Virus record (IMG/VR): IMGVR_UViG_2529292908_000003
DNA length: 18,304 bases
DNA from: a virus
Taxonomy: Duplodnaviria; Heunggongvirae; Uroviricota; Caudoviricetes
Strand: one strand, 5' to 3'
In this document: piece by piece, positions 14,939 through 18,304 of the stretch
Layout: each line of letters starts with the position of its first letter
Numbering within the stretch: the first letter of the stretch is position 1
The notes under the pieces: model-generated
Databases searched by the model: none
Seen by the model: only the letters and a program-made list of their open reading frames with translations
Told to the model about the DNA's origin: nothing
Position numbers and translations under genes: made by a program

Positions 14939-15051
14939 ATGACCACACAATATGGATTTTTATCGATTCCAGCCGCTGTACTGGCTGTAAAACCTGCGAA
15001 CTGGCGTGCAAAGATTTTAAAGTTGGTTACGTATCGTTTAAAATCAATTAG
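14939..15051 (+). pseudogene. ynfG: ynfG remnant (4Fe-4S ferredoxin subunit): frameshift in a T5 run at 14957-14961, then truncation about 26 codons in
   Basis: ATG 14939 gives MTTQYGF; the ferredoxin motif IDSSRCTGCKTCELACKD lies in the +1 frame with no start codon, ends at TAG 15049-15051, and is followed by unrelated DNA. YnfG is about 205 aa in K-12 (recalled). Confidence 0.7.
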
Positions 15052-15095
15052 ATAGCCCGTCATTTCTGCGCTCACACGTCCCAACATTGAAAAAC

Positions 15096-15129
15096 ATGCA
15101 AAGCTTTGTAAGCCGATGCAAAGCTTTGT
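15096..15129. promoter_or_regulatory. Two copies of a 14-bp repeat ATGCAAAGCTTTGT, each containing the perfect 10-bp palindrome CAAAGCTTTG, spaced 20 bp centre to centre; operator-like
   Basis: Palindromes at 15099-15108 and 15119-15128, read directly; two-helical-turn spacing is typical of a dimeric repressor operator pair. Confidence 0.4.
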
Positions 15130-15215
15130 GTGTCTCACTTTTGTCCCAATACCAATCCGAATCCACCCTTTGTCATCATTGAGAAATGGCAAGGAAGAAA
15201 AGGATGTTACTGCAC

Positions 15216-15302: not shown

Positions 15303-15407
15303 ATGCCTGTTTACAGGTATCGCCATATCAATGGCGGGTCGAGAGAGCCTAATACAATACCCTTTCGGGAAATACGCTCCGCCGTCTGACGCGGTAGTTG
15401 AAGCCCG

Positions 15408-15416
15408 CCCCCCCCC
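15408..15416. repeat. Homopolymeric C9 tract about 40 bp upstream of the antirepressor-like gene A start
   Basis: Nine consecutive C at 15408-15416 (preceded by GCCCG), within the 5' leader of gene A. Confidence 0.9.
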
Positions 15417-15458
15417 ACTAAGGTGGCAGTCAATACTAAAACGTCAGGAGTCATAATT

Positions 15459-15743
15459 ATGACTAATCAACTCATTCCCGTTTTCGATGGAACCATCAAC
15501 AACGAACCAGTTTTACTTTGCAATGCTCGCAATCTGCACGCTTTTCTTGGTATTGGTAAAATGTTTGCTCACTGGATCAAGGACAGGCTGGGTGAATATG
15601 GATTCGTTGAAAATCAAGATTTTGTGATTGCTTGCCAAAATTGGCAAGCAAAAGGTAGAGGCGGTCACAACCGCAAGGAATACCACCTCACCCTCGACAC
15701 AGCCAAAGAGCTTGCGATGGTTGACGACTGCGTCCAATACTGA
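15459..15743 (+). CDS. Antirepressor-like protein, AntA-type N-terminal domain only (truncated paralog of the gene at 15993)
   Basis: AGGAG SD 8 nt before ATG 15459; product MTNQLIPVFDGTINNEPVLLCNARNLHAFLG...HLTLDTAKELAMV is about 60 percent identical to the N-terminus of the next gene, then diverges and stops; 44 bp (15681-15724) are identical to 16209-16252. Confidence 0.6.
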   Translation: MTNQLIPVFDGTINNEPVLLCNARNLHAFLGIGKMFAHWIKDRLGEYGFVENQDFVIACQNWQAKGRGGHNRKEYHLTLDTAKELAMVDDCVQY

Positions 15744-15790
15744 CTATACTCCGCGCCGAGGCCTCGAAAACCTCCCAAAAGCGGATTAAA

Positions 15791-15816
15791 CCAACCCCGT
15801 CAGTGTTGGATTTTTT
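15791..15816 (+). terminator. Putative intrinsic terminator after gene A (stem CCAAC/GTTGG, loop CCCGTCAGT, then A-UUUUUU)
   Basis: Hairpin plus T6, 48 bp after the gene A stop; loop sequence CCCGTCAGT recurs at 16704-16712. Confidence 0.45.
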
Positions 15817-15992
15817 ATGCCTGTTATTCAGTGATAGCACAGTGTGCGGTCACATCCCCGATCAATGTCGGGAGGGCGACGAATACAACACCCGCAAGGG
15901 GAATAAGTCCGCGGTATCTTTTGGGCCGTTTCGAGCCTCCCGGCACCACATCTTGTGGTGGCATTTCTCGAAAAAAGCCAAAGGAGGTCATC

Positions 15993-16622
15993 ATGACCAC
16001 TCAACTCATCCCTGTGTTTGAAGGTACAATCTCAAATGAACCTACGCTTCTGGTGAACGCGCGTGATTTGCATGGATTTTTAGAGGTAGGTAAAGATTTT
16101 TCTAACTGGATACGGGCCAGGCTAAACGAGTATGGATTCGTAGAAAATTTAGACTACATTCTATTTTCGCCAAATTTGGCGAAAACTCCAGGCCGCCGCC
16201 GCAAGGATTACCACCTCACCCTCGACACAGCCAAAGAGCTTGCGATGGTTGAACGTAACGAAAAAGGCCGCCAGATACGCCGCTACTTCATCGAGTGCGA
16301 AAAGAAACTTCGCAACATTCAGCCAGTACAAGCAGAACCACAGCCGCAATTCACAGCCGAGGAAATCATCCTCCTTTGCTACATGCAGCTCTGGATGGAA
16401 AAAGCCCAGGACATCAGCAAACACCTGTATCCCATTATGAAAGAGCTGAACTCCTCATACACGAACAAGCTGTATGACATTGCGTTTGAGACCATCTACA
16501 TGGTGACGAAGAACAGAGACGCGCTACTGAGGGAGGTAACACGTCTCGACATGTCAAGTTCCGTTATCCAGCGGGCCATGCCAATGCTGAAAAGCCTGCG
16601 GGCAAGACAATTCGAGTTTTAA
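15993..16622 (+). CDS. Phage antirepressor-like protein (AntA-type N-terminal domain plus a C-terminal domain shared with the gene at 16877)
   Basis: AGGAGG SD 5 nt before ATG 15993; MTTQLIPVFEGTISNEPTLLVNARDLHGFLEVGKDFSNWIRARLNEYGFVE...HLTLDTAKELAMVERNEKGRQIRRYFIE, and a C-terminus PQFTAEEIILLCYMQLWMEKAQ...LRARQFEF shared with the next gene. The track's 54-codon upstream extension has no RBS. Confidence 0.75.
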   Translation: MTTQLIPVFEGTISNEPTLLVNARDLHGFLEVGKDFSNWIRARLNEYGFVENLDYILFSPNLAKTPGRRRKDYHLTLDTAKELAMVERNEKGRQIRRYFIECEKKLRNIQPVQAEPQPQFTAEEIILLCYMQLWMEKAQDISKHLYPIMKELNSSYTNKLYDIAFETIYMVTKNRDALLREVTRLDMSSSVIQRAMPMLKSLRARQFEF

Positions 16623-16627
16623 GGCCA

Positions 16628-16660
16628 GATTTGACAAATCCGCATTAACGGGGATATATT
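16628..16660 (+). promoter_or_regulatory. Promoter-like module C: palindrome GATTTGACAAATC with -35 TTGACA (16631-16636), 18-bp spacer, -10 TATATT (16655-16660)
   Basis: Consensus -35, 5 of 6 -10; 16-bp identity with module A; begins 6 bp after the gene B stop. Confidence 0.5.
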
Positions 16661-16691
16661 CCGCTCCATGGTGCTGAACACACCTTCGAAA

Positions 16692-16726
16692 GCGGAAACC
16701 GCGCCCGTCAGTCATGCGGATTTTTT
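16692..16726 (+). terminator. Attenuator/terminator-like element C: GCGG-aaa-CCGC-(13 nt, containing CCCGTCAGT)-GCGG-a-UUUUUU
   Basis: Same three-segment layout as 15267-15302 despite different intervening sequence; T6 at 16721-16726. Confidence 0.4.
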
Positions 16727-16876
16727 ATGTCCATTTTTCAGATATGGTCGGGTAGCGCGTATACCGAAAAACAGCCGTAAGGCTAAGGATGCGGGCCGAA
16801 CTTTCGACGGTGTTCAAGTACCCGACCGCCCTGCTGAACACGGGGTGATCTGAACGAATCGAAAGGACATAAAACT

Positions 16877-17509
16877 ATGAGCACTCAACTTGTATTCCAC
16901 AATGTTCAATTCCAGACCGTTCAACGAGATGGTCTACTGTGGTTGTCTGCCCCCCAAATAGCCAGCGCGTTACAATATGCAGATCAAAGCTCGGTAACAC
17001 GCATCTATGCCCGTCACGCAGATGAATTCACAAACGGTATGACAGCCTCGGTCAAATTGACCGATCCTAAAGGGGACAAGCAAGAGACTCGCATCTTCTC
17101 ATTACGCGGCGCTCACCTAATAGCGATGTTTGCTCGAACTCCAATAGCAAAAGAGTTTCGTCGCTGGGTATTGGATATTCTGGACCGTGAAGCTGAAAAA
17201 AGCGCTATACCGCCACAACCTCATATTCAGCCTCAATTCACAGCAGAAGACATCATCCTGCTCTGCTACGTTCAACTCTGGATGGAAAAAGCACAACAAC
17301 TCAGTAAACAGCTATACCCCGTCATGAGAGAACTGAACTCTGATTACTATGGAAAGCTGTTTGATCTGGCCTACGAAACTCGTCATATAACCAACCGGAC
17401 TCGCGACACATTGCTCCGCGAAGCAGCAAAACTTGATCCCGCCAACTATACGGTGCACAGGGCCAGAAGTATGCTGGCGCAACTAAGAGCAAGACAATTT
17501 GAATTCTGA
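16877..17509 (+). CDS. Phage antirepressor-like protein (Bro-N-type N-terminal domain plus the C-terminal domain shared with the gene at 15993)
   Basis: AAGGA SD; N-terminus MSTQLVFHNVQFQTVQRDGLLWLSAPQIASALQY (Bro-N-like); C-terminus PQFTAEDIILLCYVQLWMEKAQ...LRARQFEF about 65 percent identical to the preceding gene. Confidence 0.75.
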   Translation: MSTQLVFHNVQFQTVQRDGLLWLSAPQIASALQYADQSSVTRIYARHADEFTNGMTASVKLTDPKGDKQETRIFSLRGAHLIAMFARTPIAKEFRRWVLDILDREAEKSAIPPQPHIQPQFTAEDIILLCYVQLWMEKAQQLSKQLYPVMRELNSDYYGKLFDLAYETRHITNRTRDTLLREAAKLDPANYTVHRARSMLAQLRARQFEF

Positions 17510-17514
17510 AACCA

Positions 17515-17536
17515 AAGGAGCTTCGGCTCCTTTTTT
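17515..17536 (+). terminator. Rho-independent terminator after the antirepressor array: 7-bp stem AAGGAGC/GCTCCTT, UUCG tetraloop, T-run
   Basis: Perfect stem with UUCG loop and T6, read directly, 6 nt after the stop at 17509. Confidence 0.75.
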
Positions 17537-17556
17537 CATGCCTGAAGGAAAGGAAA

Positions 17557-17778
17557 ATGGCAGATATCATCGACAATGCCGCTGAAATCGAAGAATTGCA
17601 GCGCAATCTCTCCCTGCAAAAATACAAATCCGATAGTAATGCCCCATCTGCTACTCATTGTTGCGAGTGTGGCGATCCGATAGATGAGCGGCGACGCCTG
17701 GCTGTTCGTGGATGCCGAGCTTGCGCCAGTTGCCAGCAGGATATTGAACTTATCAACAAACAGAGAGGTGTGAAGTGA
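17557..17778 (+). CDS. TraR/DksA-family C4 zinc-finger protein (phage TraR-like transcription modulator)
   Basis: AAGGAAAGGA SD; 73 aa with CxxC-x17-CxxC (CECGDPIDERRRLAVRGCRACASCQ), typical of TraR-like proteins of conjugative elements and lambdoid phages. Confidence 0.75.
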   Translation: MADIIDNAAEIEELQRNLSLQKYKSDSNAPSATHCCECGDPIDERRRLAVRGCRACASCQQDIELINKQRGVK

Positions 17779-18092
17779 ACATCAACACCACGATAACGAT
17801 CGATACAGCCCTGAACACCGGCCTGGCGCTCCTTGGTTATTTCTACATCATGTTCTGCAGCGGACGATGGCTGTCACTGTTGTTCATGAAAAAATGGAAT
17901 AAACGCCGTAAGCAGGAGCAACGCCAGAAGGCAATGGATGCATTTTTCGAAGCCTTCGGGATTGACAGCATGGAACCAGGGGATCCAGCTCGCGCAATCA
18001 GCAGAGGGGGCGTAGTAATCCTTGTATATCGGAGTGAAGAGAAAAATGACGATCACAAAACAACGTGTAGAAAAAATCATATATCGCCATGA
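17775..18092 (+). CDS. Hypothetical small protein with one predicted TM segment; GTG start overlaps the TraR-like stop (GTGA)
   Basis: ORF start and stop overlap suggests translational coupling; hydrophobic stretch GLALLGYFYIMFCSGRWLSLLF followed by a basic region; no family recognised. Confidence 0.35.
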   Translation: MNINTTITIDTALNTGLALLGYFYIMFCSGRWLSLLFMKKWNKRRKQEQRQKAMDAFFEAFGIDSMEPGDPARAISRGGVVILVYRSEEKNDDHKTTCRKNHISP

Positions 18093-18304
18093 AATGGGAC
18101 TGAACAGCGATGTCACTGCCGAAGAGGTTTATGACCTGGCTGTACTGGCGCTGAATTTATCAAATATCGCAAACCTGAAGCGATACGAGCTTGATATGGA
18201 TTGTTGTGACTCGTTCGGTCAGGATTGTGGCGCTGACATGACTGAAGATTCTGATGGCGATTATGTTCTGTTTGATGACGTGGTTAAGTTGTTTGAGTTT
18301 GATA
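18046..18304 (+). CDS. Hypothetical acidic protein, 5' part; ORF runs off the window end
   Basis: ATG 18046 with GGAG 11 nt upstream; 86 codons without a stop (MTITKQRVEKIIYRHEMGLNSDVTAEEVYDLAV...DGDYVLFDDVVKLFEF); absent from the ORF track because it has no stop. Confidence 0.45.
   Translation, partial: MTITKQRVEKIIYRHEMGLNSDVTAEEVYDLAVLALNLSNIANLKRYELDMDCCDSFGQDCGADMTEDSDGDYVLFDDVVKLFEFD

Follow-up and report, generated by a model that had tools for sequence, protein, structure and literature searches.

Three overlapping genes that open the orf73-ea22 accessory block in a 933W/Sp5-like Escherichia coli prophage, most likely expressed from pL

Do three small overlapping genes behind a terminator-like hairpin form a unit of their own, and from where would they be expressed? 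The question is raised by the end of IMG/VR virus record IMGVR_UViG_2529292908_000003, a stretch of 18,304 nucleotides that we refer to as a whole as the window. An original prediction made from the sequence letters had described positions 17515–18304 as a TraR-like zinc-finger gene translationally coupled to two small open reading frames (ORFs) of no recognised family, with candidate early or moron functions. We conclude with fair confidence that the orf73-ea22 early accessory block begins here, in a lambdoid prophage of the 933W/Sp5-like (Sepvirinae) kind residing in E. coli ynfG, and that this block is most likely expressed by N-modified polymerase from pL. The three genes are real and conserved, all are under purifying selection, and they are packed by stop/start overlaps, which fall at the boundaries of mosaic modules. 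The assignment of the first product as TraR-like holds and was already known, and the two other ORFs belong to catalogued families without a characterised function.

The identity of the surrounding DNA is clear. A query limited to window positions 17400–18304 matches the E. coli FORC_069 chromosome at 100% identity, and all three genes of the 17557–18304 block had been annotated beforehand in the RefSeq record for that strain. The stretch of the FORC_069 record corresponding to the full window length extends from host ydfG through ynfE and ynfF to a truncated ynfG. The junction of prophage and host DNA lies inside ynfG at approximately 15016–15022, the second junction is at approximately 1134–1190 of locus L003, and only a short TTTAAAG core is common to the two. 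The inserted element is a complete lambdoid prophage of about 62 kb of the short-tailed 933W/Sp5 type, with int at its far end, and its cargo includes an N4-gp56-type capsid, a Q antiterminator, and a nanS-p-like esterase at the position where stx would be. Integrase, exo, bet, gam, kil, an N-like antiterminator (PHROG 271, 7.6e-35) and the repressor are located at the far end. The + strand of the window enters the prophage from the end opposite the integrase, and presents in order an antA pseudogene, Ant, BRO, the hairpin, the TraR-like gene, a DUF4752 gene, a hypothetical gene (ORF3), two ead/Ea22-like genes, and DUF551, and RefSeq annotation exists for each of these genes. Host ynfE and ynfF share this strand with the phage genes and are oriented into this end of the prophage. 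The stretch is ordinary, already annotated prophage DNA resembling that of Shiga toxin (Stx) phages, and there is nothing new in the genes themselves.

The first gene (17557–17778, + strand; RefSeq WP_000763353.1) begins with an ATG preceded 7 nt upstream by an AGGA Shine-Dalgarno sequence, and ends with a TGA at 17776–17778. Its 73-residue product had been read as a C4 zinc-finger protein of the TraR/DksA type, and profile searches bear this out, with a Pfam zf-dskA_traR (PF01258) score of 31.8 bits against a gathering cut-off of 24.9 and a match to PHROG 54 ('DksA-like zinc-finger protein') at 5e-24. A PDB sequence search returns TraR (6n57/5w1s, E 1.5e-3 to 2.5e-3) and also YbiI. The closest characterised relative is Orf73 of phage lambda. 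We read its sequence from the lambda record, where it falls in a gap without annotation between ea22 and orf61; the two proteins are 71% identical over their full length (E 3e-39). Both are 73 residues long and contain a DxxDxA motif, as defined previously (PMC9239242), which in the window protein is D3-I-I-D6-N-A8. They also share a CxxC-17-CxxC zinc motif (C35xxC38, 17 residues, C56xxC59), the same two extra cysteines (C36 and C53) and an RRR basic patch. They differ at residues 17–31, where the window protein has another variant (LSLQKYKSDSNAPS as opposed to TAIKMRRLNHQAIS in lambda). The ratio of nonsynonymous to synonymous substitution rates (dN/dS) is 0.10–0.20 in comparisons with lambda-type genes, and an identical protein is encoded in a 60,942-bp IMG/VR contig and in other Stx phages. 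On these sequence comparisons, the first gene product is an ortholog of lambda Orf73.

The relationship to F-plasmid TraR (PDB 6N57, 5W1S) is more distant. The two belong to the same family of small proteins and have the same motif set, although TraR acts in a conjugative context rather than in a phage. The score to the NCBIfam TraR family model TIGR02419 is 52.6 bits against a cut-off of 59.7, and that to the F TraR equivalog model is 18.8 against 108; the protein is therefore not an F-TraR equivalog, and these scores have no bearing on its orthology to Orf73. Promoters that are activated by TraR were not activated by lambda Orf73 (PMC9239242). The proposal that TraR-like phage proteins reprogram host RNA polymerase is established experimentally for lambda Orf73, which binds the polymerase, inhibits ribosomal RNA (rRNA) and ribosomal-protein promoters, complements a dksA null mutant, slows host growth, and raises phage yield about 4-fold (PMC9239242). 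By homology, the window protein would bind in the secondary channel of RNA polymerase and shut down rRNA and ribosomal-protein promoters without guanosine tetraphosphate (ppGpp), both of which have been shown for lambda Orf73, and this would divert resources to phage production. We also observed recombinant orf73 genes in IMG/VR loci L032–L036, with crossovers inside the conserved zinc-finger core; in some of these a window-type N-terminus and hairpin are joined to a C-terminus of the lambda type, with ea22 as the next gene, and in others the arrangement is reversed.

The second gene (17775–18092, + strand) has 105 codons, with a GTG start within a GTGA overlap and a GAGAGG Shine-Dalgarno sequence at 17763–17768. 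No family had been recognised for either of the small ORFs, and this no longer stands, as profile searches place the second gene product in Pfam DUF4752 (PF15944; E 2.5e-40, 136.8 bits against a gathering score of 27, covering profile positions 1–84 of 84) and PHROG 667, and ORF3 in PHROG 3126. The match to DUF4752 is full-length with the same N-terminus and core, the window protein differing in an approximately 11-residue non-conserved C-terminal tail made by the junction with ORF3. DUF4752 is a narrow family of 94 homolog clusters at 90% identity, and those that are named come from E. coli, Shigella, Salmonella and E. marmotae. A scan of GTDB representative genomes returned only NZ_JPLE01000321.1, a 484-bp contig labelled Xanthomonas pisi that encodes a DUF4752 protein 93% identical to the E. 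coli one and is probably assembly contamination. Family members in the alignment are typically 91–96 residues long. Their N-terminal helix is hydrophobic and conserved, and they also have a basic KKWNKRRKQ stretch, a small C-terminal region and a variable tail. Relative to the gene in phage 75/02 Stx, dN/dS is 0.12.

A transmembrane segment in DUF4752 is plausible and moderately supported, although not firm. The highest Kyte-Doolittle mean over 19 residues is 1.36, at residues 19–37 (the usual threshold is 1.6), and a basic flank follows. An AlphaFold2 model contains a long helix (residues 3–61) and a beta-hairpin (73–84) with a predicted local distance difference test (pLDDT) score of 68.9. 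A Foldseek search with this model against BFVD found no match with E below 0.9, and the only PDB profile matches were to designed repeat proteins, which we regard as spurious and driven by the basic helix. Neither DUF4752 nor ORF3 has an NCBIfam match, none of the three proteins matches a PADLOC defence model, and a literature search with 'DUF4752' as the term found no paper. Our guess is that DUF4752 is probably made early as a small protein anchored in the membrane, with a basic face towards the cytoplasm.

The third gene, ORF3 (18046–18304, + strand), was noted as an acidic ORF leaving the window, and it can be completed from the identical FORC_069 record, where it ends 55 nt past the window. 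The full protein has 104 residues, an isoelectric point of 4.1, and a net charge of −15. It matches PHROG 3126 over positions 1–105 of 105 (6.1e-63) and matches no Pfam model; a PDB profile search gave no match, and the AlphaFold2 model has a pLDDT of 49, too low to warrant a fold search. ORF3 has 221 homolog clusters, in which the N-terminal MTITKQR is invariant, and dN/dS values are 0.14–0.49. At its stop, ORF3 overlaps the next gene, which is ead/Ea22-like and starts with GTG, by 14 nt (L001 6948–6961), and ORF3 is usually directly upstream of Ead/Ea22 genes; it is present in P22-like and other lambdoid phages, as well as on a phage contig of about 47 kb without a nearby Ea22 gene. We tested a 104-residue gene two genes downstream of the Salmonella DUF4752 gene as an ORF3 homolog, and the two are not homologous.

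A profile search against 1.8 billion representatives showed that the halves of ORF3 recur separately, as N-terminal or internal modules, in larger proteins with Ead_Ea22, DUF551 or dATP/dGTP-pyrophosphohydrolase domains, which are mosaic proteins of the lambdoid ea and nin regions. In the 278-residue cluster representative P0215, ORF3 is fused to Ead_Ea22 in a single protein. ORF3 differs from these in that it stands alone at 104 residues; it is therefore a module from the repertoire of Ea22-type mosaic proteins that occurs here in free-standing form. We would guess that it is an Ea22-type N-terminal module, which probably acts together with Ea22 proteins.

The original prediction also raised the prospect that conservation might favour an antisense frame over the small ORFs, and the comparisons point the other way. 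The sense dN/dS values are low for both DUF4752 and ORF3, and we rejected as coding the antisense 80-residue ORF at 17874–18116, which spans a mosaic junction (see below) and is interrupted by a stop codon in the homologous sequence of 75/02 Stx.

The hairpin upstream of the first gene has the form AAAGGAGC-UUCG-GCUCCUUU followed by a T-run (17514–17536, + strand). The stem-loop occupies 17514–17533 and the T-run extends to 17536; both elements were correctly recognised in the original prediction, although its start at 17515 was one base late. Folded alone it has an energy of −11.5 kcal/mol (z −3.8), and one of 200 dinucleotide shuffles was equally stable. It has the shape of an intrinsic terminator, with an 8-bp stem (five core pairs, four of them G-C, and three A-U pairs), a UUCG loop, and six T residues after the core stem. 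A consensus terminator scan of the region did not list it, apparently because extension of the stem through the A-U pairs leaves the T tail too short. The exact hairpin core is present in 27 window-type IMG/VR loci, and phage 75/02 Stx carries the same core with a UUCA loop.

The hairpin had been treated as a feature of the TraR-like unit, and its distribution points instead to the gene upstream. This is a BRO/antirepressor gene (16877–17509, + strand; RefSeq 'BRO family protein') with Bro-N (3.6e-11) and P22_AR_C (3.2e-07) Pfam domains. The sequence from the BRO stop codon to the T-run recurs with one base changed behind an ORF6N gene elsewhere in this prophage, in its nin region (L003 18627–18646, ...CAATTTGAATTCTGAAAC[C/T]AAAGGAGCTTCGGCTCCTTTTTT), and similarity between the two copies of this cassette stops directly after the T-run. 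The hairpin is therefore the 3’ end of an upstream BRO/antirepressor-type cassette that is joined here to the orf73 module, rather than part of a TraR unit. The window Ant gene (15993–16622) has 3’ coding sequence in common with the nin-region ORF6N gene, without the hairpin.

A terminator-like hairpin is also present in the lambda genome at approximately 31,265–31,287, separate from the predicted terminator t2 described below, and judging by its position this is probably tL3. A literature search for tL3 yielded neither coordinates nor sequence. The hairpin preceding orf73 corresponds instead to t2 of Bloch et al., which is predicted between orf61 and orf73 in both lambda and Phi24B (PMC4195576). 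The window hairpin resembles t2 in being a rho-independent-type hairpin upstream of orf73 with a GGAGC/GCUCC core and a T-run, but the loop and flanks are unlike, and t2 is 60 nt from the orf73 ATG as opposed to 20 nt here. Given the membership of the window hairpin in an antirepressor cassette, the two may be analogous rather than homologous. In lambda, mRNA levels of orf73, ea22 and ea8.5 are lower downstream of t2, whereas this is not so in Phi24B (PMC4195576). The lambda result gives indirect support to the predicted terminator role of the window hairpin.

The position of the block on the circular map suggests how it may be expressed. In the circular record of phage 75/02 Stx, one strand carries N, kil, gam, bet, exo, int, attP, the ant genes, orf73, DUF4752, ea22 and DUF551. 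Circularization of the FORC_069 prophage similarly places on a single strand pL, the N-like gene, kil, gam, bet, exo, int, attP, the ant genes, the hairpin, orf73, DUF4752, ORF3 and ea22. This differs from lambda, where the order is exo, orf60a-63-61, t2, orf73, ea22, xis, int, such that orf73 lies between exo and xis, whereas here the int/attP module is upstream of the orf73-ea22 block and orf73 is beyond int and attP. The neighbors of orf73 also differ, with orf61 upstream and ea22 next in lambda, and an antirepressor gene upstream and DUF4752 next in the window. A consensus scan found no promoter-like site between the hairpin/BRO stop and the orf73 ATG (17509–17557); this and the same-strand circular order make N-antiterminated expression from pL, as judged from the anatomy, the most likely arrangement. 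In this model the orf73-ea22 block would be the distal part of the pL operon, and N-modified polymerase would read through int, attP and the cassette hairpin into the block. In the integrated state the block is cut off from pL, and expression would then follow excision or infection. Each downstream cistron would be translated from its own Shine-Dalgarno sequence embedded in the preceding gene.

Several considerations weigh against this reading or parts of it. Read-through from pL across int and attP is drawn from gene order, and the terminator role of the 17514–17536 hairpin, which has a short core stem, is predicted. In Phi24B, orf73 and ea22 are strongly expressed despite t2, and a promoter overlapping t2 has been proposed (PMC4195576). 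The block could therefore be driven by a promoter too weak for the consensus scan to detect, or by transcription from the BRO promoter that leaks through the terminator. As to the proteins, the hydrophobicity of DUF4752 is under the usual transmembrane threshold and a conserved Arg/Lys lies inside the segment, and the structure models of DUF4752 and ORF3 yielded nothing of use, with no fold or PDB matches.

Some of these same points enter into a different explanation, in which the three genes are a moron-like unit, expressed in the lysogen from a local promoter and altering host physiology. Transcription could come from a TTGACA-18-TATATT site at 16631–16660 upstream of BRO, a good sigma-70-like promoter by consensus scan, through a leaky hairpin, or from a cryptic promoter overlapping the hairpin, as proposed for the analogous hairpin of Phi24B where orf73 and ea22 mRNA is high (PMC4195576); it is also true that the block is physically separated from pL when integrated. 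However, no promoter-like site intervenes between the hairpin and the ATG, and base composition is uniform, with a G+C fraction of 0.45–0.50 across the region. Furthermore, lambda Orf73 slows host growth (PMC9239242), which would be costly in a lysogen, and the genes belong to a conserved early accessory region rather than to an insertion flanked by its own signals. We consider this explanation unlikely, and the block to be one of early accessory genes and not morons.

The overlaps between the genes raise the further possibility that the TraR-like protein, DUF4752 and ORF3 are co-translated to act together as a dedicated three-protein system, such as an RNA polymerase regulator tethered to the membrane. 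The overlaps are as originally described: the orf73 TGA overlaps the GTG at 17775 in the sequence GTGA, and the 105-codon ORF overlaps by 47 nt ORF3, which opens with the ATG at 18046, so that stop/start overlaps join all three cistrons. The GTGA joint is present at all 80 of the 80 IMG/VR loci with an orf73 relative as well as in lambda, and a GAGAGG Shine-Dalgarno sequence lies within the KQRG codons of orf73 across the GTGA loci. The orf73-DUF4752 pair is found in many Stx phages. However, the gene joined to orf73 by GTGA belongs to any of three unrelated families, namely DUF4752, Ea22, or a protein starting VMANLQLAVKSEYFD. Elsewhere DUF4752 is found without orf73, preceded by DUF4406, DUF551 or an intergenic gap, and ORF3 occurs without either partner in P22-like and other phages. 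The exact orf73-DUF4752-ORF3 trio is present in only 10 of 5426 complete E. coli genomes, and lambda Orf73 is active alone in vitro (PMC9239242). The neighborhood data largely refute a dedicated system, which we regard as quite improbable. Thus the coupling proposed originally holds as to the overlaps and the conserved GTGA, and fails as to a functional trio. Because three different families follow orf73, the GTGA joint is best viewed as a conserved mosaic boundary that would also permit coupled translation, and not as a sign of a dedicated partnership. The third of these families was seen at IMG/VR loci L037–L075, where it has the start VMANLQLAVKSEYFDAMIRGEKTEEYR and is joined by the GTGA overlap.

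The 47-nt overlap arose by recombination. In pairwise DNA alignment, homology to the orf73-DUF4752-ea22 arrangement of the 75/02 Stx/Sp5 type ends exactly at the ATGA at 18046–18049 (+ strand), the start of ORF3, and matches in the phage and E. coli databases stop at query position 650–653, which corresponds to window 18049–18052. As a result, the DUF4752 frame does not stop after ...EEKNERD and continues through 11 further codons, which are not conserved. The overlap is a by-product of this module swap at the ORF3 ATG rather than an evolved arrangement.

Expression of the block in a lysogen by read-through from the anaerobically induced host ynfEF operon, which is aimed into the prophage end with ynfE, ynfF and truncated ynfG directly upstream on the + strand, is very improbable, since at least two terminator-like hairpins (15094–15133 and 17514–17536) and three antirepressor genes lie between.

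The prophage end contains additional features that we note here. At 15094–15133 (+ strand), about 75 nt inside the prophage, two copies of ATGCAAAGCTTTGT form a perfect 17-bp hairpin; the 101-nt stretch around it has an energy of −23.7 kcal/mol and none of 200 shuffles was as stable. On the circular phage this hairpin would lie just past int and attP, where lambda has its tI/sib retroregulator, although it could equally represent Int arm sites. The three antirepressor paralogues (the antA pseudogene, Ant and BRO) are arranged in tandem at 15459–17509 (+ strand), and the P22AR-type C-terminal halves of Ant and BRO are closely alike. Approximately 40 nt upstream of each is a full-length match to Rfam RF02221 (sRNA-Xcc1) on the + strand, at 15333–15417, 15867–15952 and 16746–16835, with scores of 49.9, 73.4 and 67.7 bits respectively (gathering score 53). 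The RF02221 motif also precedes an ORF6N gene in APSE phages (PMC7313666), and the element resembles a cis-acting leader, placed 5’ of genes of the KilA-N/Bro-N/ORF6N type, more than an independent small RNA.

Returning to expression from pL, the arrangement invites a more specific suggestion, which we offer tentatively as a possibility. With int and attP in the middle of the leftward early operon, the antirepressor-orf73-DUF4752-ORF3-ea22 genes might be expressed only after excision or fresh infection, by N-modified polymerase that ignores the terminator, with DUF4752 as a small membrane effector. If true, this would constitute an excision-coupled gate, with a logic analogous to that of lambda sib retroregulation.

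The one non-trivial point about this locus is thus architectural, in that the orf73-ea22 block lies across attP from pL, and its expression may depend on excision. The DUF4752 and PHROG 3126 families travel with Ea22 genes, and learning what they do would close a small gap in what is known of lambdoid phages. Because the Orf73 ortholog is identical in Stx2 phage Sp5 and its relatives, its effect on host transcription may matter for the yield of Shiga-toxin phages.

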